From positions 1,538-65,537 of the IMG/VR virus record IMGVR_UViG_3300012231_000010: a DNA stretch of 64,000 nt; one strand, given 5' to 3'. The notes under the pieces are model-generated. The model saw only the letters and a list, made by a program, of their open reading frames with translations, made no database searches and was not told where the DNA came from. This DNA comes from a virus. Taxonomy: Duplodnaviria; Caudoviricetes. Below are positions 7,144 through 62,629 of the stretch, piece by piece; within the stretch, counting starts at the first letter, position 1, and each line of letters starts with the position of its first letter. The position numbers were made by a program, and so were the translations under genes.

Positions 7144-10100
7144 TTAGAATAGCTCCTGTTGCGCCTCGCGCAGTTCGATGTCTTTTAGCTCTTGCCGGTA
7201 GTCCCCGAGATTCAGCTCGGACCACCCTTTCTTCGCCCAGTTCATTTTTTCGATGAACCAAAGGGCCCCTTGAAGCTGGTGTGCTTTCAGACCCAACCGC
7301 TTGGCGGCGGCTGAAAAAGCTTTCTGAGAAAAAGCAAAGTCGGCGTCAGACACAGCCTTGGCGTGCTGCGGCAACACGCGCCAGCGGTCTTGGAAGCCCT
7401 TGTAACCGGCTTCTCGCATTGTCCGCGCCGCCCATAGGTCGATGGTGGCTTCATCAGACTCGCCAAGCAGGTTCATCACGAAATTTTGAGTCTTGGGACC
7501 CTGGGTCTGCTTCAACCAGCGCCGGGTGATGACTTTCAAGACCGCCTCAGAGTGCATGCCGAACTTCGGAGCGATCTTGCCGTCCTTGGTCATGCGTTCC
7601 ACTTGTCGCGGAAGCAAATCATGCTTCTGGATCCACCAGCCCATCAGAGCGGCGTCTGAAATCGTCTGTGGCCTTTGTGCCGCAGGCACGGAGCGTTTGT
7701 ATTGCTTCACTAACGACCCGTCCGCCAGCTTTGATAACCCCTCTTCGTATTTCGTGATAAGGGCGTCAAAATCACCGTTCTTCCAGCGCTTGAAAGCAGC
7801 CTCGGCGAATCCGTAGTTGACCTTCGGTGTGGTGTTGGGGCTTGTGGCGGCTAACAGCTCCGCAAAGATGGGGGCGTCCTCCCCGTAGCGCGCCTTCAGC
7901 AGCGGAGTGAAATCGTCATACCATCGCTCTCCGAGTTTCGTGCTAGGGTCGTCCTTGTGCGCTTTATATTTCTCTTCCAATTTGGCGGCGAACGCTTCAA
8001 CAGCGGCGTCTTCGTTGCCCGCCTGCTTATAGAGGGGAGATTCCTTGATGGCGTAATCCACCGTGGTATCCTTCTCCCGGGGGACAACCGCCTCGGGATA
8101 CTGCTTGCGGAGCTGGGGGAGCGTCAACTCGGCCCGTTCGCGTTTTGACAGCACTGCTGGGGAAATTTCTTGCGCACCGAGATCAAACTCCAGTTCTTTA
8201 CCCTTCGGGAGAAATGAAATCGTGGTAGACTTAGTGGCTTTGACTGGGGCGACGTTCAGATCATCAACCGCGCGCGGTTCAACGTCTGCCAGCCCGCCGG
8301 GAAACTTCACCGGCTCACCCTTGACGAGATTCTCGATTGCGGCGGCGATATCCGCCGGGTCTTTCAGCACGGTATTGCCATCGCCCCCGCTGGGGACCAC
8401 TTCCAGCTTCTTCAGGTCAAAGAACGATTCCTGGTTATTCGCCTCAGCAAATTTTTGGGTATTGGCCCGGTGGGTCTGGTCAACAACCACATTAAGATCC
8501 ACGCTAACCAGTTGCTTGTCGCCCTCACCTTTTCGGGAGATTCGGAAGAGTCCGGCTTTTGCGGCCTCATTATCCAGGATATCCGCGAACTGGGCGAGCG
8601 CTTCCCGTGCATTATCTGGGGTAAGATCCTCGGCCGGGATATCCCGGCTGGCCAGTGTAACGACATCTAGGGAACGGTCACCGGGAACAAATATCGTTCC
8701 GTCCGCATTAAAGGTTTCGCCCTCTTTATCGCCCTTGGCAATCCTGGACAGTTCATCCGGGAATTCAGCGGCAGAAAAAATGTTGGCGGTAGGCAGAAAA
8801 GCCCCGCGTTGCCCAGTGCCCTCCTCAGTTACAAACGGAATCGACTCCAGCTTTTGAGCGTCATCGTCCATCTGGAAAAATTGTCGGGTGGCAGTGCGCT
8901 TCGTGTTGCCTTGGTTGTCCACAAGGGAGACAGTCAGATTGTCGATGCCGTCCAGGTTGTCAGTGATGTATTCCTGCACCTTGTCGCGTTGGGCCTTGCC
9001 GAATTTGGCCTCGTTGGCTTCAATCACCAGCCGCCCGTTGTTGGGGGTATACGAAATACGGATGAAGCCGGACGACAGCGCGCCGATGCGAACGTCCTCC
9101 TTGCCCTGCGTGGCTGGGATGGCGGTCTTGAATTGCTTGTTCAGGGACTCGCTATTCTCGATCAAGTATTGGTCATGGGTGGCGCGATTGACTTCTCGGA
9201 ATGAACCGTCCGGCAGTATGAAGGACTTGGCGACCAGCGGGAGTTTTTCGTCTTTGCGTTTCTTGGGCAGAAATTGCGCGTCGGGATCAATATCAGAATG
9301 AGCGACTATCGAGCCGCCGTCTTCCACTTCTGCGGCCGCTTGCTCGGGGCTAATGTCAATGGGTTCACTTCCCCCAAAAGAAGTTTTCCCCGGCCCGAAA
9401 ACGCGTTCCCGAATTTGAACTGGGCCCTCCCCTACGATATTACCAGACAAACCAGTAACTCCCCGAATTTGAAGTTCAGTTGCGGCCTCTCGCAGCATCG
9501 CCTCGGCGATACCCCGGCGTCGAAATTTTTCAGAAACATCTATCGCCCCGATAGTGGCGAGTTTAGCAGAATCAGTTATCCCTAGGATGATCTTGCCGAC
9601 CTTCTTACGATTTTTTACTACTGTAAATTTAAGTAACCCCGGGGAAGCCTCTCGAAGAAATTCAAAATCCTTTTCTACTAGCGCTTTTCCTTTTTCGGTA
9701 ACTGGTTCGTGGGGCAGAAATTGCGCGTCGGGCGAAATCTCGTTTGTCGCCTCGAAGAAGTCGGCGGTGCGGTTGCCCGTTTCCCGCATCCGGCGCAGCG
9801 TGCCAGCAGCTTCTTCCGCCGCAACCTTGTCGCCCAGAGCACTGGTCAAGTCGATAAAATCGCCAAAGACAGACTGCCGGATTTCGAGGGGCCCCTCGGC
9901 GACAATGAATCCAGACAATCGCTTCGCGCCATCTTCCTGGAGCAAGGATCCCAGTTCGCGGTAAAGCGCCTCACCCAAACCCTGCTTGCGCAACTTGGGG
10001 TCCACAATCACATTGTCCACCATGGCCAGCTCAGGAGAAGGCTGGTGAGAATAAATCTGGCCGACAACCTCGTCGCCCTTGATGATCTGCACTGACCGGG

Positions 10101-13100
10101 TTCCCGGGAAGCCTAGATGTTTAAATTCATAGCCCTTGCCTTCCAGCTCCACGCCCTTCGTGGTGCGCGGAAGAAACTTAGCCGGGGGCGGGACAAGAAA
10201 ATCTTCACCGCGTTCCGCCAAGGCTTTGCCCATGCTGCCCGTTTTAGTCGCGGCTTCCATGGATTCCCGGAAGAATTGAGTGCGAGTAGCCTCGGTCATC
10301 GCGGCATCAAAATCCCCGGCTTGCATCGCTTTCTTGGAGGCCGCAGAAGACGCCTCTTGAAGCTTGACAAGATTATTGACCGCCTCAGGTGTCCGGGATA
10401 GCTTACCTAACTCCACTGCTTTGCCCGTTATACCAGACGGTAGCGTCTTGGCGAATTCCACAAATTCTTCAGTGGACATCTTGGCCACTTCACCGGGGAA
10501 CCCGGCGGCGGTGTCAGCGGTCAGCTCGGCGGGTAAGAATTTTGCCCCCTCTAATGCGATTGAGCGCGCGCGCTCAATTAACTCGGGGGCTACAAGGGAC
10601 GCTTTTTGCTGCGCGAATGGGCGCTCAGCCAACGATAGGAATCCTTCATCACCTTTTTTAATCAGCTCTCCCTTAGCGTTTCGCATGTGCGGGCCGTAAT
10701 TAGTCCAAGCTGTTTGCGCGATGGACTCACTGGCTAATGCCCCTTGGGCGGCGGGAGTGAACATTTCAGAGTGCGCGCGCCAAGCGTTGAATTCGCCTTG
10801 CGGACCAAATTGGTATCCTTCCTTGGCGTGCCCGAAATAGTCATGGACGGCGCGAAAAAGGTCATTGACCGGGACCGATATGCCGTCAATAACCACACCA
10901 GAGTCCGCCAGCATCGGGTGATTTTCCGGCTTGCCCCCATTGCCCCCGTATTCTTTAACCGTCTGGAGGACTTTGAGACGTTTGTTAATTCGCACGTCCG
11001 CGACCATATCCGAACTGGATTTGTAGGGTTCCCCGGTCTCGTCGAATAATTCGATTTTTACCCCAGCATCTTTTAAAGCATTGTATTGTGAAAATATTTC
11101 ATCGCTGAATGCTTTATACCCCGCCTGGATTTCTGCGTCTGTTGGGTTGTGCGTCGCGGATTGCCACGCGTCGGCAAATTCCATGCCCATCTGAACCGGC
11201 AATTTAGAATTTACAGAGGACGGGGAATAGGGTATGCCCGCAGCTTCCGCATAAGCGCGCGCTACAGTGCGCGCGTCCTCGTTTGGTTCCAATTTTGCGG
11301 GCTTCTTGTCTGGTAGCAAACCAGTGCGCAGGGCTTTATCCCGCTCCTCGGGAAGAAACTTTGCGGCCCCCGCGAATTCCCTAGACTCAAGCCCGCCTAT
11401 GCGCCCGGTTGATTCGCGCATCTGTTTTTCATCCACTTGCTTGATTTCAACAGCGCGTTGAAAAGCCTCGTCCCGTGAAAGGAAATTCCCGGCACCGTCA
11501 ATAAAGCCGTCTTCGAGAGTGTCAGTCTCCAGAATTTGGCCCGCGTCCAGACCATTAATAAACGCGTCGGGGTGTGTCCGCCCGGTGACAATCTCCCCGC
11601 GTGGGGTGCGTAGGGCGGCGGAAACAACACGGCGCTCTTCCAGTTCGCGGGGCAAGAAACCGGCGCGGACAACGTCAGTGACAGGAGCCTTGAATTGAAG
11701 ATCCGGCCGGGGCTTGACCGATTTGATCCGGTCCACCCGCAACCGCTCAGTGACTTCGTGCAAATCGCGAATTTCGACCCCTTGCCGCGCTAGTTCATTG
11801 CGCAGCGGGTTGACTTCGCCGACCGTTTCCCCAGTGGGGAAGGTTTGCTTGCCAGTGGCTCCCGGTTCAATGCGCGCGGGAGTTTCAACGGAGCGCAAGT
11901 TTATCTCGGCGATTTTACGGGCCTTAACATTGCCTGGCACCCCTGGACCGGTTACCCGGGAGGTCTTGGGGGGTGCCAAGCCCTGAAGCAAGTTCAGGTA
12001 ATTCCCCACATCCTCGGGAAGCAACGTTGGCCGGTAAGATGGGTTCTCAGGCGGGATAGACGCGCCCAGCTCGGGGGCGGGGCGGACAAGTTTTTGACCG
12101 TCACCCCGGAAACCATTCTGCTGGTTCTCGGTATACGCCACCAAATCTTTTTGTAAACGACGCCAAGAGGCTTCTGTAAGGTGCCCATTGGCGACTTCAT
12201 AAGGAAGAACGTTCTTCAGGCCCTTAGCCGTGACGGCTTTATTAACGATATTGACGTTGGCCAGGACTTTATCCAGAGACATCCCAAGGATCTCAAGCTT
12301 CTGCCCGGCCCCTTTGCCCACCGTCTCGAATCGGACGGGGACGAAACCTTTTTGGAAGAGGTCCCGCACGTCCCGGGGTGCTGTCCCAGCGGCTTCGGCG
12401 GCATCAGCCTTGATACGCTCCTCCAGTCGGACAAGGCGGCCCTGGGGCTTCCCAGGCTCGAATTCTTTGGCCCCCATTACTTCCAGCTCAACGGGGGTAA
12501 CTTGGCCGGGTTTGCGTTCGAAACCGGCGGCAAGATCATCAACCACCTTGATAAGGTTAGGATCCCCTACCTTGGCGGCAAAGGTGCGGCCGACATCAAT
12601 CCGGGCAGATTCAAGCGCCCCGGCGGCAGTTCCCTGTTGTTCCGGGGTAGTAATGCGAACATTACGTAGTCGCTCGCCAAGGGATGTTGGGGCGGGTCGG
12701 CCGGGTTGCGGGGTGACTGGCGGGGTCACTTCCGGGGTGACTGGCGGGGTAGCCGGGCTGGGTTGCGGCTTAGAAAAATCAACGGTCGGCGCGGGGGCGG
12801 CCTGGGGCTCAACCCGGGTAATCCGCTCCCGAACAGCGTTCTCAAGCATCCCCTGAACGCTAAAGGACGGCTTTACAGGGAGGTTGGGGGTAGTTCGACC
12901 GCCCGTCAGGTCAATGCCAGCTTTCTCGGCGACCCGTGCGGCAGCCGCAACCAGACGATCAACCAAGGGCCGGGGAGTCCCCAGCGTCTCAATTGGCGCA
13001 TTGGCCATCAAGCCGGAGAAATTCTCAGCAATGATCTCGCTTGCCAGTCCCTCAGGGGAGAGTTCCCGCGCGGGCTGGCCCGAGAGCAAGCTTTGATTCA

Positions 13101-15120
13101 TCCGGTCTTCGTAAACTTGTTTAAATGCCTCCAATTGCTCAGGGGTATACCGTTTTAAAACCTCCGCCTGCAAAGCGTCCCGCGTGGGTTCATCGAGGAT
13201 AGCTTCCAGCATGTGTCCGGCATCATGCGGCAAGCCAGTCGCATCCCTGTTTAAGAAAACCACTTTCTTTGGCCCGGAGGAAGTGTTAAAGGAACCTGAA
13301 AAAACAGCGTGGCTATTAGCGAACGATTCGGCGGCGGATAACTCCTCGGCGGTAAGCGGCGCGCCCTTCTCGGTCTCCATCACTTCCAGCACGCGCTGGC
13401 GGTAGTTATCCGAGTCTTGCAAATAGATTTCACCGTCACCCCGAAAAAGTTCCCGGAAGCCATTAACGGTGGCCTGTGTGGGTGCGTCAAGCGCGGCAAA
13501 TTGAGCCTCATGAACCTGATCCAGGGCTGGAACGAGTCCATACGCGGGGGAGTCAATGACGACTGGTGGGGTAGTCTTGTCGAAAGGATCAAGCAGGCGG
13601 CCGCCAACAACGCGCTCGCGCAATGCTGTAACGCCCTTATATGCTCCAATTGCCGCTCCGCCGATACCGCCCAAAGCCAAACCGCCAGCCAATAGGGCAG
13701 CAGCCTGTTCATCAGTATCAGCGGCGGCCGCCAATGGAGCGGCGGCAACAGCGCCAACAGCGGCACCCTTTGCGACAGGCGCAACGGGGGTAGAGACGGC
13801 CTGAACCGCCCGGAGCAAGCGCCCAGGTTGGGCCTCCCCGGTCAGCTCACGCCCGAAAGCAACGATCTTTTGGCCAGCGCGCTGGGCGGCTTGACCAGTT
13901 TTGACAATACCCGTGGCAACCCGGCCCGCTGCCGCTGCCGCAGCAGTAGCACCAACAGCCGCGCCCGGGAGCCCAGCGAATTCCGCACCCTTGACAGCGC
14001 CAGCGACACCGGCGGCGAGTTTCATTGGGGCTCGGCCCACTTCTCCGATCTTCTCAACCGCTTTTCCCCCAAGTTCAGCAGCTTTCCCAGCAACTTTAAC
14101 GGCGGTCCCCGGAGCGGCTTTCACCGCATCGACAACCGGCGCGCCAATTCGCTTAGCGACTTGCATGGCTTTCGCGGCATTGGGGGCAAGGCCGATGACT
14201 TGTCCAGCTTTATTGACCATCACAACGCCGGATGCAACTGAAGCGGCTTTGGCCAGTTTGCCAAGGAGCTGTGCCCCCTTAACAGGGACGATAATTTGAA
14301 TGGGATCTGCCAGAGAAAGACTTTCGACCACATCCGGGTCGATCTCGACACCTTCTTTGGCCAACGTGTCCGCATCCAGGCCCAGCGCCTTTACTGCGAC
14401 ACCTTTACCAGCGCGCGCGTTCTCCGTCGCATTCAAGAAGTCGATATCGTCCTGCAACGCGGCTTCAAGTTCCGCCGGTGTAGCCTTGGCCCAATCCTCG
14501 GCGGACATCTTAAGCTTTCGGATGCCCGTCCGCCCAAGGTCAACGATCCCCGTAGCGGCCAGCTCAGATCCAGCCGCCATTTCGGCGATGGCTTGCTTCT
14601 GATTCTTCTTCGTCTCAGCAATGATGCTCTTGATCTGTGTGGGATTTGTGATGGCCCCGGCAACCAAATTGACAGTTGGTTGCACACCTGCCTCGATGGC
14701 CCGCTCCAAGTAATCCCGGAACCCCTTGGCGACATCCGCGATCAATCCGGGAGCGGCAGGGACGGCCTTGGAAACCACTTTGGCCAAATCAATACCACGA
14801 ATCCGGCGAGCGCGGGAAGCCTCCAAAAGCTTATTAAACTGTTCCGGATCCCGTCGCACATCGGGGTTGTCCCGGACATACTGGGCGAGATTGAATTTCT
14901 CGGAGTCCGACAACTCTTCGTCAGAGAGATACTCAGTGGGCTTGGCCGCTTGAAAAGCAGAAAATTCATCCCCGGCAACTTCAAAGCCCGCAAATTCATC
15001 CCCGGCGGATTCAAACCCGGCGAATTCGTCCAGTTTAACAGACGGAGGGAGTGGCTGTGGGCCAGTAACGGACCCAGGCGCTAACAGGCTGTCAGCGTTT
15101 TGTGGGATGATAGTTGCCAT
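7144..15120 (-). CDS. Giant polyvalent / ejected virion protein (2658 aa) with zincin-like motifs, two GNAT domains and a C-terminal HhH/glycosylase-like domain
   Basis: PHDAGH...EIIAENF and FRAVHDYFGH motifs; two GNAT motif A segments (VDPKLRKQGLGEALY, VSEKFRRRGIAEAML); C-terminal WYD...LLAATSP...TIDLWAAR...QLQGALW; located after ejection/pilot genes. Confidence 0.8.
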   Translation of the reverse strand: MATIIPQNADSLLAPGSVTGPQPLPPSVKLDEFAGFESAGDEFAGFEVAGDEFSAFQAAKPTEYLSDEELSDSEKFNLAQYVRDNPDVRRDPEQFNKLLEASRARRIRGIDLAKVVSKAVPAAPGLIADVAKGFRDYLERAIEAGVQPTVNLVAGAITNPTQIKSIIAETKKNQKQAIAEMAAGSELAATGIVDLGRTGIRKLKMSAEDWAKATPAELEAALQDDIDFLNATENARAGKGVAVKALGLDADTLAKEGVEIDPDVVESLSLADPIQIIVPVKGAQLLGKLAKAASVASGVVMVNKAGQVIGLAPNAAKAMQVAKRIGAPVVDAVKAAPGTAVKVAGKAAELGGKAVEKIGEVGRAPMKLAAGVAGAVKGAEFAGLPGAAVGATAAAAAAGRVATGIVKTGQAAQRAGQKIVAFGRELTGEAQPGRLLRAVQAVSTPVAPVAKGAAVGAVAAAPLAAAADTDEQAAALLAGGLALGGIGGAAIGAYKGVTALRERVVGGRLLDPFDKTTPPVVIDSPAYGLVPALDQVHEAQFAALDAPTQATVNGFRELFRGDGEIYLQDSDNYRQRVLEVMETEKGAPLTAEELSAAESFANSHAVFSGSFNTSSGPKKVVFLNRDATGLPHDAGHMLEAILDEPTRDALQAEVLKRYTPEQLEAFKQVYEDRMNQSLLSGQPARELSPEGLASEIIAENFSGLMANAPIETLGTPRPLVDRLVAAAARVAEKAGIDLTGGRTTPNLPVKPSFSVQGMLENAVRERITRVEPQAAPAPTVDFSKPQPSPATPPVTPEVTPPVTPQPGRPAPTSLGERLRNVRITTPEQQGTAAGALESARIDVGRTFAAKVGDPNLIKVVDDLAAGFERKPGQVTPVELEVMGAKEFEPGKPQGRLVRLEERIKADAAEAAGTAPRDVRDLFQKGFVPVRFETVGKGAGQKLEILGMSLDKVLANVNIVNKAVTAKGLKNVLPYEVANGHLTEASWRRLQKDLVAYTENQQNGFRGDGQKLVRPAPELGASIPPENPSYRPTLLPEDVGNYLNLLQGLAPPKTSRVTGPGVPGNVKARKIAEINLRSVETPARIEPGATGKQTFPTGETVGEVNPLRNELARQGVEIRDLHEVTERLRVDRIKSVKPRPDLQFKAPVTDVVRAGFLPRELEERRVVSAALRTPRGEIVTGRTHPDAFINGLDAGQILETDTLEDGFIDGAGNFLSRDEAFQRAVEIKQVDEKQMRESTGRIGGLESREFAGAAKFLPEERDKALRTGLLPDKKPAKLEPNEDARTVARAYAEAAGIPYSPSSVNSKLPVQMGMEFADAWQSATHNPTDAEIQAGYKAFSDEIFSQYNALKDAGVKIELFDETGEPYKSSSDMVADVRINKRLKVLQTVKEYGGNGGKPENHPMLADSGVVIDGISVPVNDLFRAVHDYFGHAKEGYQFGPQGEFNAWRAHSEMFTPAAQGALASESIAQTAWTNYGPHMRNAKGELIKKGDEGFLSLAERPFAQQKASLVAPELIERARSIALEGAKFLPAELTADTAAGFPGEVAKMSTEEFVEFAKTLPSGITGKAVELGKLSRTPEAVNNLVKLQEASSAASKKAMQAGDFDAAMTEATRTQFFRESMEAATKTGSMGKALAERGEDFLVPPPAKFLPRTTKGVELEGKGYEFKHLGFPGTRSVQIIKGDEVVGQIYSHQPSPELAMVDNVIVDPKLRKQGLGEALYRELGSLLQEDGAKRLSGFIVAEGPLEIRQSVFGDFIDLTSALGDKVAAEEAAGTLRRMRETGNRTADFFEATNEISPDAQFLPHEPVTEKGKALVEKDFEFLREASPGLLKFTVVKNRKKVGKIILGITDSAKLATIGAIDVSEKFRRRGIAEAMLREAATELQIRGVTGLSGNIVGEGPVQIRERVFGPGKTSFGGSEPIDISPEQAAAEVEDGGSIVAHSDIDPDAQFLPKKRKDEKLPLVAKSFILPDGSFREVNRATHDQYLIENSESLNKQFKTAIPATQGKEDVRIGALSSGFIRISYTPNNGRLVIEANEAKFGKAQRDKVQEYITDNLDGIDNLTVSLVDNQGNTKRTATRQFFQMDDDAQKLESIPFVTEEGTGQRGAFLPTANIFSAAEFPDELSRIAKGDKEGETFNADGTIFVPGDRSLDVVTLASRDIPAEDLTPDNAREALAQFADILDNEAAKAGLFRISRKGEGDKQLVSVDLNVVVDQTHRANTQKFAEANNQESFFDLKKLEVVPSGGDGNTVLKDPADIAAAIENLVKGEPVKFPGGLADVEPRAVDDLNVAPVKATKSTTISFLPKGKELEFDLGAQEISPAVLSKRERAELTLPQLRKQYPEAVVPREKDTTVDYAIKESPLYKQAGNEDAAVEAFAAKLEEKYKAHKDDPSTKLGERWYDDFTPLLKARYGEDAPIFAELLAATSPNTTPKVNYGFAEAAFKRWKNGDFDALITKYEEGLSKLADGSLVKQYKRSVPAAQRPQTISDAALMGWWIQKHDLLPRQVERMTKDGKIAPKFGMHSEAVLKVITRRWLKQTQGPKTQNFVMNLLGESDEATIDLWAARTMREAGYKGFQDRWRVLPQHAKAVSDADFAFSQKAFSAAAKRLGLKAHQLQGALWFIEKMNWAKKGWSELNLGDYRQELKDIELREAQQELF

Positions 15121-18885: not shown

Positions 18886-20127
18886 TTAAAACTCCTCGAT
18901 GATTAGACACTCAGGGCCCGTAAAGCACCCGCCGTCTCGGTAATACCTGCCGGTGGGGACATCGTCAATTCCCTTGATACCAGTCCAACCGATGACAAAA
19001 TCCACACCGTCAAAAAAGATGATATCTAACCGCCAGCCAAACCCGCTTGCATTTGTGGGGTGGTCTGTGATATAGTAGACATCCGCTGAATTGATTTGGA
19101 TCCCATTGATGGTGGCCGCCGAAGCAATCGCCCAATCTGCGAAACTTGGAAGCCCAAGCAAACGGTCCGTGAACGCGCCATCCCATTCGGGGTCCGCGCT
19201 TCCATTGGCTGTGCATGTCCCAACCCATATGCTTGGATTGTAGTCTTGAATTCTGACTTGAAGCGGGAACACTGGAAAAGAACCGGTCCGCTTCAACTGG
19301 AATGTAGGGTTGGGAGCCCCCGCAACGGGATTAGTAGCCACACCAAATCGGCCAAAAGAGACTGAAATGTCCCCCGCAGTTGTATGATAGAATTCATGCT
19401 CAAGCCCGGTGGGGACGAGGGCTTCGACTGCGGCCTGTGACGCGCCGAACTTACCAACCCCGCCATCCGGATCAAAGCTGGATGCGCCGTTATCCCAAAA
19501 CCAATCGTAGCTATTAAATTTCCAGTCACCGGGATTAGGATTATCGTCTTCCTTATACGCGCCGCCAGTGTAAATGATCTTGAACCGGCCGATGGCAAAC
19601 GACCCAAAATCGTCTGTGTGCGATGCGACAAACGGATCGGGCGTGAGCGAACCTAAGTCAGTATCCTCGGGGGTCAACAGCCCGTCCTGGGTATCCGTCC
19701 CGGACTCACTCGGACAATCTCCGGGATCCACCGGTGGTTCTCCGGGATTCGTTGCAGTCACTTCGGGAGACAACGGAGTTTCCCCCTCAGGAGTAATGGC
19801 GGACACCCGATAATAGAAAGTCCCTGCGCCGGGGTTATCCGAGTAAGACCGGCCTGCCTGACAAGTGGAAATCAATTGATATGGTCCGCCTGGAGCCAGT
19901 GCGCGATACACATTATAGCAGATGGCGCGGCGGACCGCATTCCAGCGCAACGAAAACGTCCCGGTCCCCTCGACCAGCAAACCGGTGGGATACGTAAGTT
20001 CATCAAAGGGGAGAATGCTAATTTCCACGTCGCCCGAAGCGGACGCGATCTCATGGCACACGAGCGGGGAGATATAGTCGATGACAAACTCTCGGCGCGT
20101 GATCGGGCGTGAAACGTCTAAAGGCAT
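18886..20127 (-). CDS. Structural protein with FN3-like domain
   Basis: FSLRWNAVRRAICYNVYR...YYRVSAITPEGETPLSPEV is an FN3 pattern; lies in tail module. Confidence 0.6.
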   Translation of the reverse strand: MPLDVSRPITRREFVIDYISPLVCHEIASASGDVEISILPFDELTYPTGLLVEGTGTFSLRWNAVRRAICYNVYRALAPGGPYQLISTCQAGRSYSDNPGAGTFYYRVSAITPEGETPLSPEVTATNPGEPPVDPGDCPSESGTDTQDGLLTPEDTDLGSLTPDPFVASHTDDFGSFAIGRFKIIYTGGAYKEDDNPNPGDWKFNSYDWFWDNGASSFDPDGGVGKFGASQAAVEALVPTGLEHEFYHTTAGDISVSFGRFGVATNPVAGAPNPTFQLKRTGSFPVFPLQVRIQDYNPSIWVGTCTANGSADPEWDGAFTDRLLGLPSFADWAIASAATINGIQINSADVYYITDHPTNASGFGWRLDIIFFDGVDFVIGWTGIKGIDDVPTGRYYRDGGCFTGPECLIIEEF

Positions 20128-22097
20128 GCCGCATCAACTCCTCCCAGAACTGGCGGAACATCACGCTCCAGCTCATGCGCGATTCGGGCGCGGGCAATCG
20201 CATCCGCGATTTTATCAGCGTCCTTTTGGCTGATTACTGACTGCGCATCCCCCGTTTGCACGCTGAATATCCCCTTAACCGAATCCGCGACGGAAACATT
20301 CGCCGTGAACTTGTCCACGGGCGCAGCCAACGTGTCATAAATCGCGTCTAGCGTCCCTTCCTCGGAAACGCCGTCGAACCGAACCGCGTTCTCTTCGGTC
20401 TCGTCAACCTCACACTTGCCGCTCAAGATGTCATTGACCGGATCCAGGAACATCCGGATTCCGCGAACCGCTCCAGGACCGCTCCCAACAATGAAAAGTT
20501 GAAACGCATCATCGAGGGTTTCCTTGAGGGAGTATTCCACGCCACACGAGCTATCCTGGGACTCGGGCATCGTTCGAACATCCTGCGTTCGAATCCGGCG
20601 AGACTGCTTCTTGAACGAAAAAACGTCCTCGTCCATCGTCAACTCCCGATCAAACCTCATGGACCCCTCGGCCGCCCGGATGCGCTTGGCCAGAATCTTT
20701 TTGTAGGCCCCCCGGGACGCGCCCGCCCAGAACACGGCAACATCGACATCGCCCTGTAGTTCCGACAGGAACACATCGGCGTATCGAAATTCTTTGTCCT
20801 GTAGGGGGCCCTTCGCAAAATAGCCACGAGTCTCCAGGGTCCAGGTGATGGGGCATCCTTCGTCCTTCCGCTCGGGCAAGAACGCTTCCCACATACGATT
20901 CACTCCATCATAATCGGTGGAGCTGTAAAAAGCGCGCTCGATGTCCAGGACGCTGCCAACTGCCCACTCCACCGGCCGGGTTCCTGTCCAGTAAGTATTC
21001 CACGCTACGGGGGCGCGCCCGCTAAGCGTGTCCGCAATGGAATTGTCCAGGACCCAGGTATGCCGATTGTAAGTGTCCCCATAGGGAACGCTGACCAGCA
21101 AATAATTCTCGTAAGCGGCAATAACGATTCCAGACAAGTCTCCTCGGAGATAGCCCTTGCTCACCGACATTTCATTATCAACGTAAGGAAGCCGGGAGGT
21201 TTGCTGCGCCAATGAGGCGGCGTCAAACGACGTAAGACCGAAGTTAGAAAACCACCAAAGCAAGCCATAGTGAGCCCGGATGGACTTAGGGGCGCGGCAC
21301 CCGATCTCGGGCAGCACAACCCGCTGAAAATCCGGGGTGTTTGCCCACTCGTCACGCGAGCGAATGCTGGCCTTGAACAGGCTGGTAGTGTTCGTAGTGA
21401 AGACGAGCAACTGCTGGAATTCCAAGCTGGGCGTAATGGCCATGCCGGTCACTTCCTCAGACAGGATGAAGAACGGATTGCCGCCCAAGTAAGTGTCCTC
21501 GGTAAAGCTGAAAGGATCTGCGATATCTGACGCAAAAACCTTGGACCCACGGGCCACCCAGAGACGATCCCCAACCCAAGCCATCGGCCCGCCAATCGGG
21601 GTCAAACTATTTTGGATCGGATTAGTATTTCGAAGATGATCCGAGTTGGAACCGTCAAAATACACTGGAGGCGAGACTCCATCCTGTAGAATGAGAATCG
21701 AGCGAGGCTCCACCACAGTCAGCGATCCATCCGCATTACGCTCAACGGACTTCTCCGCGATGACCCAATGCACGCGGTCCGCCGTTTCGGCAAGGAGAAC
21801 GTTGTCCAATCGGCGGTAGCTGTCGAACGGAAGATTGCTGACGTAAACGCGGCCGTCAACAACGAAAATAATCTGCTCAGGGGATTCCTTGGGCCGGAAC
21901 AACAGCGACGCCTGGATCTTCCCGGCGGGCATCGCGAACAGGCAACGATACCCGGGACGGCACTGCACGATTCCACCACGGTTCAGTGTATTCATCGACT
22001 GCGCAAAAAACCCTGGGTCGATCTGCGCCGGGTCGAACAGACTGTTCATCCCCAGCGCGAACGTTGTATCCCCATCGACTTGGCGCTGCGTAGACAT
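20118..22097 (-). CDS. Tail tube B / packaged-DNA stabilisation-like (beta-propeller) protein
   Basis: 659 aa, beta-rich (GDRLWVARGSKVFASDI...); position after adaptor gene in a podovirus-like module. Confidence 0.6.
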   Translation of the reverse strand: MSTQRQVDGDTTFALGMNSLFDPAQIDPGFFAQSMNTLNRGGIVQCRPGYRCLFAMPAGKIQASLLFRPKESPEQIIFVVDGRVYVSNLPFDSYRRLDNVLLAETADRVHWVIAEKSVERNADGSLTVVEPRSILILQDGVSPPVYFDGSNSDHLRNTNPIQNSLTPIGGPMAWVGDRLWVARGSKVFASDIADPFSFTEDTYLGGNPFFILSEEVTGMAITPSLEFQQLLVFTTNTTSLFKASIRSRDEWANTPDFQRVVLPEIGCRAPKSIRAHYGLLWWFSNFGLTSFDAASLAQQTSRLPYVDNEMSVSKGYLRGDLSGIVIAAYENYLLVSVPYGDTYNRHTWVLDNSIADTLSGRAPVAWNTYWTGTRPVEWAVGSVLDIERAFYSSTDYDGVNRMWEAFLPERKDEGCPITWTLETRGYFAKGPLQDKEFRYADVFLSELQGDVDVAVFWAGASRGAYKKILAKRIRAAEGSMRFDRELTMDEDVFSFKKQSRRIRTQDVRTMPESQDSSCGVEYSLKETLDDAFQLFIVGSGPGAVRGIRMFLDPVNDILSGKCEVDETEENAVRFDGVSEEGTLDAIYDTLAAPVDKFTANVSVADSVKGIFSVQTGDAQSVISQKDADKIADAIARARIAHELERDVPPVLGGVDAACL

Positions 22098-61707: not shown

Positions 61708-61941
61708 ATGAATACACGCGATCTTGGCATTGGGACATACGGAAAAGATGGACGCCCCCGGGTATCCGTGGGCAAGGGGTCCGCCCCGAGGAGTTGCTTC
61801 TCGCGGGAATATCGGGCGAACTTCGACAAGATCAACTGGGGAAAGAAAAAGCATCATGAACAGGTGGAAAACAGCGGCATTGTGGACGGGGGCGGCACTT
61901 CTGGGGTGGTTTGCGCCGGATCTACTGGGGTTACGGAATAA
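61708..61941 (+). CDS. Small phage protein
   Basis: GKGSAPR...YRANFDKINW motif common in phages. Confidence 0.55.
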   Translation: MNTRDLGIGTYGKDGRPRVSVGKGSAPRSCFSREYRANFDKINWGKKKHHEQVENSGIVDGGGTSGVVCAGSTGVTE

Positions 61942-62629
61942 TTCTAGACCGGAAACTTTCGCGTCAGCACCGGCGGTTGTCGATGTGTATACGGCCGCGC
62001 GGAGCTGCACCGTGCTGATCGACACAGAGACGAGCCAAGGCAGCGCCGTGCTGGTCCGCAAGACGGATTCCAAGGGTCGGGTTCATGTCTTTGCCTGGAC
62101 GGCATACCACGTTGTGGAAGGCGTGGAGAGCATCAAGGTCATCCAGGGGGAATATCTGGAGGGCTACCGAGTCGCTGAGTATTCCGCCCCGGCTTTTCTT
62201 CTAGCTTTTTCGGCGGAGGAGGACTTGGCTTTGCTGCTGGTTAATTACCCGGTTGCCCCGTGGAACGGATACGCTGACTTCATCCCCTGGCAGGAGTGCG
62301 CCATCGGAGACCCGGTCTTCCATGTGGGGAACCTGCGCGGGGACACCTATCCGGACTCCCTTACCTCCGGGATCCTGTCCCGGCTCAACGCGCACCCCAA
62401 CTTAGTGGACTGGCCCTGGCCATATCCGCTGGACCAGACGAGTTTGATTGCATACCCGGGCAGCTCGGGGGGCGGCATATTTAACGCGCAAGGCAAGTGC
62501 ATCGGCTTGCTCGTTGGGTCCGGCGGCCCCGGCATTTCATTCTTCGTCCCATCCCGGCGCATCCATGCCTGGGCGCGGAGTATCGGGATCGAATGGGCGG
62601 CCATTGGAAACTACTGTCCGGTTTTGTAA
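61856..62629 (+). CDS. Trypsin-like serine protease with N-terminal membrane anchor/signal
   Basis: AWTAYHVV (His), EDLALL (Asp), PGSSGGGIFN (Ser). Confidence 0.88.
   Translation: MNRWKTAALWTGAALLGWFAPDLLGLRNNSRPETFASAPAVVDVYTAARSCTVLIDTETSQGSAVLVRKTDSKGRVHVFAWTAYHVVEGVESIKVIQGEYLEGYRVAEYSAPAFLLAFSAEEDLALLLVNYPVAPWNGYADFIPWQECAIGDPVFHVGNLRGDTYPDSLTSGILSRLNAHPNLVDWPWPYPLDQTSLIAYPGSSGGGIFNAQGKCIGLLVGSGGPGISFFVPSRRIHAWARSIGIEWAAIGNYCPVL

Follow-up and report, generated by a model that had tools for sequence, protein, structure and literature searches.

How a virus keeps apart the many units that it strings together in a single polypeptide is the question raised by a giant protein of a tailed virus (Duplodnaviria; Caudoviricetes), IMG/VR record IMGVR_UViG_3300012231_000010. 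The stretch of DNA analyzed here, hereafter the window, comprises 64,000 nucleotides (positions 1,538 to 65,537 of the record) and hence nearly the whole 65.5-kb virus record. It contains an open reading frame (ORF) of 2,658 codons, in whose product the tripeptide Phe-Leu-Pro (FLP) recurs between successive modules. A preliminary description had noted about nine such linkers and had proposed that they are either processing sites, releasing separate effectors after injection, or recombination junctions for domain shuffling. Here, we report that the junction peptide obeys a code which is uniform within a protein and differs between lineages, and we propose that the giant protein is a virion-carried, ejected polyvalent polyprotein whose junctions would be read, and probably cut, by its own zincin-like domain, a reading to which we give a probability of about one half.

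A Recurrent Tripeptide at the Borders of Modules

The exact tripeptide FLP is present eight times in the giant protein, always in its C-terminal half (Table 1), while 0.57 occurrences are expected from composition and the highest count reached in 2,000 shuffled sequences is five. With the addition of one LLP, these sites account for the roughly nine linkers first noticed, the coordinates of which were right within a few bases. The LLP at residue 1268 is probably a degenerate second copy of the motif, as judged from sequence comparison, since one relative has FIP at this place and tandem double motifs are found in other homologues. In a six-frame scan, the other long frames read as genes yielded one FLP only, in a 659-residue ORF (20118-22097), the remaining FLP, FQP and FMP matches being located in short frames or in frames overlapping genes. 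This sole other FLP (MWEA-FLP-ERKDEG, 20874-20882, minus strand) belongs to a protein of the structural block and could be a chance occurrence.

The modules are delimited by the motif, as had been claimed. Indeed, in the C-terminal half, 71% of the ends of BLAST high-scoring segment pairs obtained with 83 giant homologues fall within 20 residues of an FLP (22% expected), and three FLPs are located, in a structural model, in its only disordered linkers between domains. This AlphaFold model of residues 1935-2658, with a mean predicted local distance difference test score (pLDDT) of 86, comprises three confident domains. Confidence is low only in residues 1935-1956, 2101-2110 and 2277-2317; each of these stretches holds one FLP, which sits toward the following domain. 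Regarding the model of residues 521-1175, confidence collapses directly after the FLP at residue 1155. These two models cover junctions 1 and 6 to 8. The preliminary description had also suggested aligning homologues to see whether modules come and go at the motif. They do, and they also change order, precisely at the junctions: modules S1 to S7 are shuffled, duplicated or absent from one homologue to another, with breaks at the homologues' own junction motifs, and the fixed parts are the N-terminal 1,154 residues, always first, and module S8, always last.

A Lineage-Specific Junction Code

The first search gathered 84 giant proteins (the query and 83 homologues), some of which contain 5-9 FLP and many of which have none. 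In the latter, FQP, FMP, FKP, FSP, FEP, FAP/FTP or FQAP is found instead among the most enriched tripeptides. Loci from IMG/VR contributed FRP and additional examples of each junction type. Across about 150 giant homologues, the junction peptide reads [small]-F-x-P, with x being L, Q, M, K, S, E, R or A; x is uniform inside one protein and differs between lineages. A logo of 342 sites gives [A/R/G]-[Q/G/K]-F-x-P-[K/A/G/R/S]-x-E, in surroundings that are polar and unconserved. Moreover, F-x-P ranks first in enrichment among all tripeptides in 25 of 97 further full-length relatives. The tripeptide [S/T]-P-E, enriched in many homologues and considered as another junction motif, was rejected as it lies within domains at helix starts, where it corresponds to a helix cap.

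All proteins share, as a homologous site, the first junction (TD..RAG-F-x-P), which immediately follows the conserved N-terminal half. In 41 of 47 proteins, the x found there is also the one that predominates at the later, non-homologous junctions. At least 12 switches of x occur on a tree built from the N-terminal region: FKP and FMP proteins are nested within the FLP clade, a well-supported sister pair consists of an FKP protein (locus L037) and an FQP protein (L039), and an FKP/FLP pair is likewise found. Alignment of the junctions of sister pairs reveals differences at x, which do not extend to the F-x-P tripeptides lying within folded domains. Homologous junctions change x in step between lineages, and their flanking residues diverge freely. 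Besides, the codons used by the eight FLP vary (TTC or TTT for Phe; TTG, CTT, TTA, CTG or CTC for Leu; CCC, CCG or CCT for Pro). As these codons differ and the intradomain F-x-P do not switch, selection acts on the linker peptide and not on the DNA.

Several lineages have no Pro in the junction (giant ORFs of loci L003, L067, L051, L014, L016, L046 and L074). In one of them, the first site is RAG-FSV and the later ones FS[V/I/A], a code which occurs in the HELYH lineage; in another, AG-[F/Y]LT is present both at the first site and at the later ones. Because these lineages follow the same rule, what is invariant in the junction is that a small residue precedes an aromatic one, the lineage code being carried by the two residues that follow. 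Such a pattern, uniform within one chain and divergent between chains, implies one reader that co-evolves with all the sites.

A Zincin-Like Domain as Candidate Reader

The N-terminal half contains a domain with the sequence H632-D-A-G-H636 where most homologues have HExxH. In the AlphaFold model (pLDDT of about 85-95 over the domain), this motif is carried by a helix that follows the edge strand of a beta-sheet, and E695 and E699, which lie 59-63 residues downstream of the H-[E/D]-x-x-H motif, are on the next long helix; as modeled, this layout is the zincin arrangement. Both motif His residues and Glu 695 are invariant in 18 aligned homologues. In wider alignments of 34 and 45 sequences, His 636 and Glu 695 show no variation, and at least 90% of the sequences retain His 632. 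Among the 97 further full-length relatives, HExxH is present in 87, HDxxH in six and neither in four. HDAGH is shared with a clade of FLP-type relatives, and HDALH is found in a second group (L018/L021). The domain therefore departs from the gluzincin signature, in which HExxH is accompanied by a downstream Glu, by combining HDAGH with E695/E699. No HDxxH metalloprotease was retrieved by a literature search and, to our knowledge, no active HDxxH zincin has been described.

Structure comparison with VIA-align retrieved the catalytic domain of anthrax lethal factor (LF; Z score 6.7, root-mean-square deviation (rmsd) 4.0, 154 residues aligned), PPEP-2 (Z 6.1, rmsd 3.5, 154 aligned) and PPEP-3 (Z 5.9, rmsd 3.8, 159 aligned), together with another modest match, the lethal-factor-like N-terminal domain of Certhrax. 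At the sequence level, hmmsearch of the domain profile against PDB sequences gave no LF or PPEP chain at E ≤ 10, and the Pfam MPTase-PolyVal and LPD models gave no match to the giant protein at E ≤ 5. The domain profile matched 398 clusters in 1.84 billion proteins. In the 150 matches listed, it is always a single domain of the N-terminal half, mostly at residues ~390-930 of proteins of ~1,200-3,400 residues, the rare shorter entries apparently being incomplete proteins. Nearly all giants enriched in FxP carry the zincin-like domain, or HExxH at the same place.

Between this domain and the first FLP lies a second conserved domain, which contains an Sm/WYL-like beta-barrel. Its closest structures (Z 7-9) are ligand or single-stranded DNA sensors of defence regulators, namely PafBC, BrxR, CapW and DriD.

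Composition and Genomic Position of the Giant ORF

The giant ORF is the final gene of the minus-strand structural block, where collagen-like tail fibre genes and genes for virion structural proteins are located as well. Cys is absent from the giant protein, although about 26 would be expected from the other ORFs, and the same holds for 108 of 147 giant homologues. With the two Cys-free genes directly upstream, the giant gene may constitute an ejection-protein set, the lack of Cys in all three products being consistent with passage through a channel in unfolded form. In addition, hydropathy points to two Gly/Ala-rich segments (residues 446-494) that could possibly insert into a membrane. The absence of Cys, the hydrophobic segments and the gene position fit an internal virion protein that would leave through the tail, as podovirus ejection proteins do, and we infer that the giant protein is ejected from the virion. 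Its N-terminus also displays three tandem acidic repeats, DEF(A/S)(G/A)F(E/Q), at residues 31-56 (window 14953-15030, minus strand), which are a possible targeting or docking signal. Among deposited phage genomes, a close relative was not found, the sole match being to module S2.

A Self-Processing Polyprotein?

We propose a protein organized in three parts. A fixed N-terminal half (residues 1-1154), with the hydrophobic segments, the zincin-like domain of metallopeptidase type and the Sm/WYL-like domain, is followed by a variable string of self-contained effector modules and then by a fixed HhH-GPD-like C-terminal domain. At every joint, a small residue, an invariant Phe and a two-residue lineage code (Leu-Pro here) lie in a disordered linker and are most likely read by one co-evolving partner, for which the zincin-like domain of the same chain is the best candidate. 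This domain would cut the chain at or beside the Phe, and release of the modules would take place in the capsid or, alternatively, once the protein has been ejected into the host. Three elements of this scheme are inferred, namely cleavage of the motif, the identity of the protease with the domain in cis and the position of the scissile bond. As to this bond, a cut before the invariant Phe would be expected from zincins, in which the S1' pocket is dominant; by analogy with lethal factor and PPEPs, a cut after the Pro would be allowed too. The processing site of the preliminary description is hence retained as the best reading, strengthened by the coordinated and lineage-specific variation of the junctions, while its status is still that of a prediction.

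A wider version, in our opinion unlikely in its entirety, would make the whole family one of self-processing polyproteins, in which an LF/PPEP-like zincin cuts before the Phe and its prime-side pockets are re-coded together with the junctions (LP, QP, MP, KP, SP, SV, LT), perhaps as a way of evading host inhibitors or cross-cleavage by rival phages. Every released effector would in this case start with Phe, a bacterial N-degron, and would be short-lived in the host.

Several observations weigh against the zincin-like domain as a processing protease. Cleavage at the junctions is predicted from sequence, and no cleavage product has been observed. The match to protease folds is modest (Z 6-7, Foldseek E ~0.07), with no profile link to a known peptidase family and no Pfam or NCBIfam match for the domain. 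In the giant protein and its close relatives, Asp stands in place of the catalytic Glu (HDxxH) and yet 5-9 FLP are kept; the Asp may act as a base, perhaps a slower one, the domain may bind the motif without cutting it, or the motif may have a different reader. The association between domain and motif is confounded by shared ancestry, and about 40% of the zincin-bearing relatives do not have a strong single motif. Within the N-terminal region, a column whose residue clearly follows x was not found, mutual information being dominated by phylogeny; the residues surrounding the active-site helix do not follow x, and the K and Q members of the sister pair do not differ there. In the model, the active site is not occupied by the first FLP. 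Finally, when the x of the first site and the downstream x were compared in independent pairs, all informative pairs were concordant, but with only two to four pairs per letter, which are too few, this concordance is below significance.

Alternative Explanations

The alternative that survives best is that the motif is not cut and serves as a docking peptide for one partner, such as a non-catalytic zincin clamp, the Sm/WYL-like barrel, the interior of the capsid or portal, or a chaperone, with a role in packing, threading or refolding. A coordinated change across a lineage requires a common reader which is not necessarily a protease, the Glu-to-Asp change would suit a pseudo-enzyme restricted to binding, and an Sm/SH3-like barrel stands directly before junction 1. 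The intact HExxH of nearly nine relatives in ten and the downstream Glu, invariant in the 45-sequence alignment, argue for catalysis, however, and the unrelated activities of the modules, which are also encountered as separate phage proteins, fit release. We regard docking without cleavage as unlikely.

Less likely again is cleavage in trans, either by another phage protease, for instance a head-maturation protease that is not recognizable by sequence, or by a host protease, with the code following the specificity of that enzyme. Such a protease could be hidden among the several structural genes that have no family match, and the HDxxH variant, which casts doubt on catalysis in cis, as well as the lack of a covarying column in the cis domain, would be accounted for. 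Yet, FLP is not enriched in the other proteins of the phage, and no member of the head-maturation or prohead protease families was detected among the structural genes. The preliminary description had pointed to proteases at 61856 and 62642 as partners. The second is a 95-residue ORF without family match. The first lies in the trypsin-like ORF of the plus-strand region, the sole recognizable separate protease, which we rejected as reader: among 30 related phage genomes (28 of them at least 90% complete), it is present in six only (L007, L008, L023, L034, L040 and L045), whose giants are of FQP type or have few Gln-type sites, and in none of the FLP-type genomes searched. As it is absent from 24 of the 30 genomes, this peptidase is not a general partner of the junctions. 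The zincin-like domain borne by the giant protein itself is a better protease candidate.

It is improbable that the motif has no reader and is either a mere structural element of linkers (an aromatic plus Pro cap) or something left over from the duplication of modules. Junctions at residues 1801 and 1950 do belong to duplicated acetyltransferase modules that share 21 identical nucleotides, but the same tripeptide is attached to other modules of unrelated fold, homologous junctions switch x in step as their flanks diverge, and the motif lies in low-confidence linkers instead of being packed on a domain. Last, the other proposal of the preliminary description, a DNA-level recombination junction for module shuffling, has very little probability as the reason for the motif: although gains, losses and rearrangements of modules coincide exactly with the junctions, the Phe, Leu and Pro codons differ over the eight sites with no shared DNA word, and a search for direct repeats yielded only one pair, the 21-nucleotide block of the duplicated GNAT tails.

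The Modules and Their Identities

The positions of all features are collected in Table 1.

Table 1. Features of the giant ORF and of its surroundings in the window. The first bases of the Phe codons of junctions 1-8 are 11658, 11358, 10539, 10176, 9720, 9273, 8799 and 8214.
Feature	Window position	Strand	Remark
Giant ORF, 2,658 aa, no cysteine	7144..15120	(-)	Final gene of minus-strand structural block
ORF upstream of giant gene, 419 aa	15120-16379	(-)	Cys-free
Second ORF upstream, 331 aa	16383-17378	(-)	Cys-free
Two Gly/Ala-rich hydrophobic segments, aa 446-494	13639..13785	(-)	Hydropathy only
Zincin-like domain, aa 521-745	12886..13560	(-)	Alignment, AlphaFold and structure comparison
HDAGH motif, aa 632-636	13213..13227	(-)	HExxH here in most homologues
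Conserved domain 2, aa 830-1154, Sm/WYL-like beta-barrel	11659..12633	(-)	Ends ...VVRAG directly before first FLP
FLP junction 1, aa 1155-1157	11650..11658	(-)	Homologous in all family members
Module S1, ~100 aa	11359..11649	(-)	PHROG 839 match
FLP junction 2, F at aa 1255	11350..11358	(-)	Exact FLP
LLP, aa 1268, in leader of module S2	11311..11319	(-)	13 residues after FLP-1255
Module S2, HDYFGH module	10540..11349	(-)	PHROG 3170 match
FLP junction 3, F at aa 1528	10531..10539	(-)	Exact FLP
Module S3, 121 aa	10177..10530	(-)	Without family match
FLP junction 4, F at aa 1649	10168..10176	(-)	Exact FLP
Module S4, GNAT acetyltransferase	9721..10167	(-)	Pfam
FLP junction 5, F at aa 1801	9712..9720	(-)	Exact FLP
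Module S5, second GNAT	9274..9711	(-)	Pfam; 36% identical to S4
FLP junction 6, F at aa 1950	9265..9273	(-)	Exact FLP; disordered linker in model
Module S6, one confidently folded alpha/beta domain	8800..9264	(-)	AlphaFold
FLP junction 7, F at aa 2108	8791..8799	(-)	Exact FLP; disordered linker in model
Module S7, one confidently folded alpha/beta domain	8215..8790	(-)	AlphaFold
FLP junction 8, F at aa 2303	8206..8214	(-)	Exact FLP; disordered linker in model
Module S8, always C-terminal in family	7147..8205	(-)	Pfam DUF7178; HhH-GPD glycosylase-like fold
Trypsin-like serine peptidase	61724-62629	(+)	Pfam Trypsin_2; plus-strand region

The identities initially proposed for the modules largely hold: two are GNATs according to Pfam, the HDYFGH module corresponds to PHROG 3170 and the C-terminus has an HhH-GPD-like fold. 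The GNAT assignments rest on Acetyltransf_1 (44.3 bits, cut-off 20.7; residues 1672-1735) and Acetyltransf_7 (35.4 bits, cut-off 27; residues 1833-1887). At the tails of these two modules, a 37-nucleotide direct repeat (9258-9294 and 9705-9741), 81% identical and with an identical core of 21 nucleotides, covers the ...PDAQFLP segment of both; in modules of such limited overall identity, it suggests local gene conversion or strong constraint. Module S2 occurs in many phages, also in the form of stand-alone proteins of ~270-320 residues.

In module S8, DUF7178 (residues 2374-2641, window 7198-8001, minus strand) is the only Pfam match. The best structural match is the Thermotoga 8-oxoG glycosylase Tm1821 (Z 9.8, rmsd 4.2, 185 of 209 residues aligned), to be taken with caution as the fold is all-helical and Z is below 13; further matches are ROS1, OGG1, EndoIII, MagIII, MutY and AlkA. 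An alignment of homologues reveals an invariant K2543, in the sequence G-P-K-T, and an invariant D2561, 18 residues apart, a spacing which we take to resemble that of K120 and D138 in EndoIII. In HhH-GPD glycosylases, the catalytic Asp follows the hairpin by about 18-20 residues, and bifunctional enzymes have a Lys in addition. Profile searches of Pfam, NCBIfam and PDB sequences gave nothing for the zincin-like domain, S1, S3, S6 and S7, and Foldseek searches of PDB gave no match at E ≤ 0.001 for either model.

Significance and Comparison With Known Systems

This family offers, in one chain, candidate sites defined at the residue level and a candidate protease. The occurrence of FLP, FQP, FMP, FKP, FSV and [F/Y]LT at the same joints constitutes a natural specificity series, which can be tested with peptides and point mutants. 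If the proposed processing is correct, module borders would become readable from sequence in thousands of unannotated giant phage proteins, and the released acetyltransferases, glycosylase-like domain and unknown folds would form a catalogue of early anti-host effectors. Pairs of proteases and sites would, in addition, represent orthogonal cleavage tools.

Viral polyproteins and MARTX toxins similarly consist of one chain with many units, uniform short sites and a built-in protease, and their site consensus is lineage-specific. The giant protein shares with polyproteins the uniform junction sites between functional units; it differs from both systems in being a virion protein of a DNA phage and in the class of its candidate protease, and cleavage is here predicted. 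The T4 internal proteins, Alt and the inner-body proteins of phiKZ-type phages are packaged in the virion, injected and processed at short sites by a prohead protease. In contrast to the giant protein, these are separate small proteins served by a dedicated protease in trans, and no such protease was found here.

Regarding the candidate protease, the nearest solved folds to residues 521-735 are those of the M34 peptidases (anthrax lethal factor, PPEP-1, -2 and -3). Unlike these enzymes, the zincin-like domain has HDxxH and a longer spacing to the Glu ligand, and it is part of a giant protein and not secreted; no relationship to them was found at the sequence level. PPEPs read six residues (P3-P3') with a Pro-containing motif, and their P2 preference is family-specific (PMC12828418). 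They are a useful functional analogue because a Pro-containing site is read and the P2 preference varies among members.

Finally, the giant protein is a polyvalent protein, a known kind. Like other polyvalent proteins, it is a giant late protein of a phage, with several unrelated enzyme domains in mosaic order, a domain of HExxH type for which processing of the chain is proposed and a late, virion-gene neighbourhood. Autoprocessing of polyvalent proteins mediated by zincin-like MPTase domains has been predicted by Iyer, Burroughs, Anand, de Souza and Aravind (2017; PMC5512222), who name no junction, cleavage motif or site and do not use the word 'linker'. In contrast with the proteins described in that work, the present family displays an explicit, lineage-variable junction code, and the giant protein is not matched by the Pfam MPTase and LPD models. 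What is new with respect to the polyvalent proteins described in 2017 is thus the junction code itself and its coordinated re-coding from one lineage to another.

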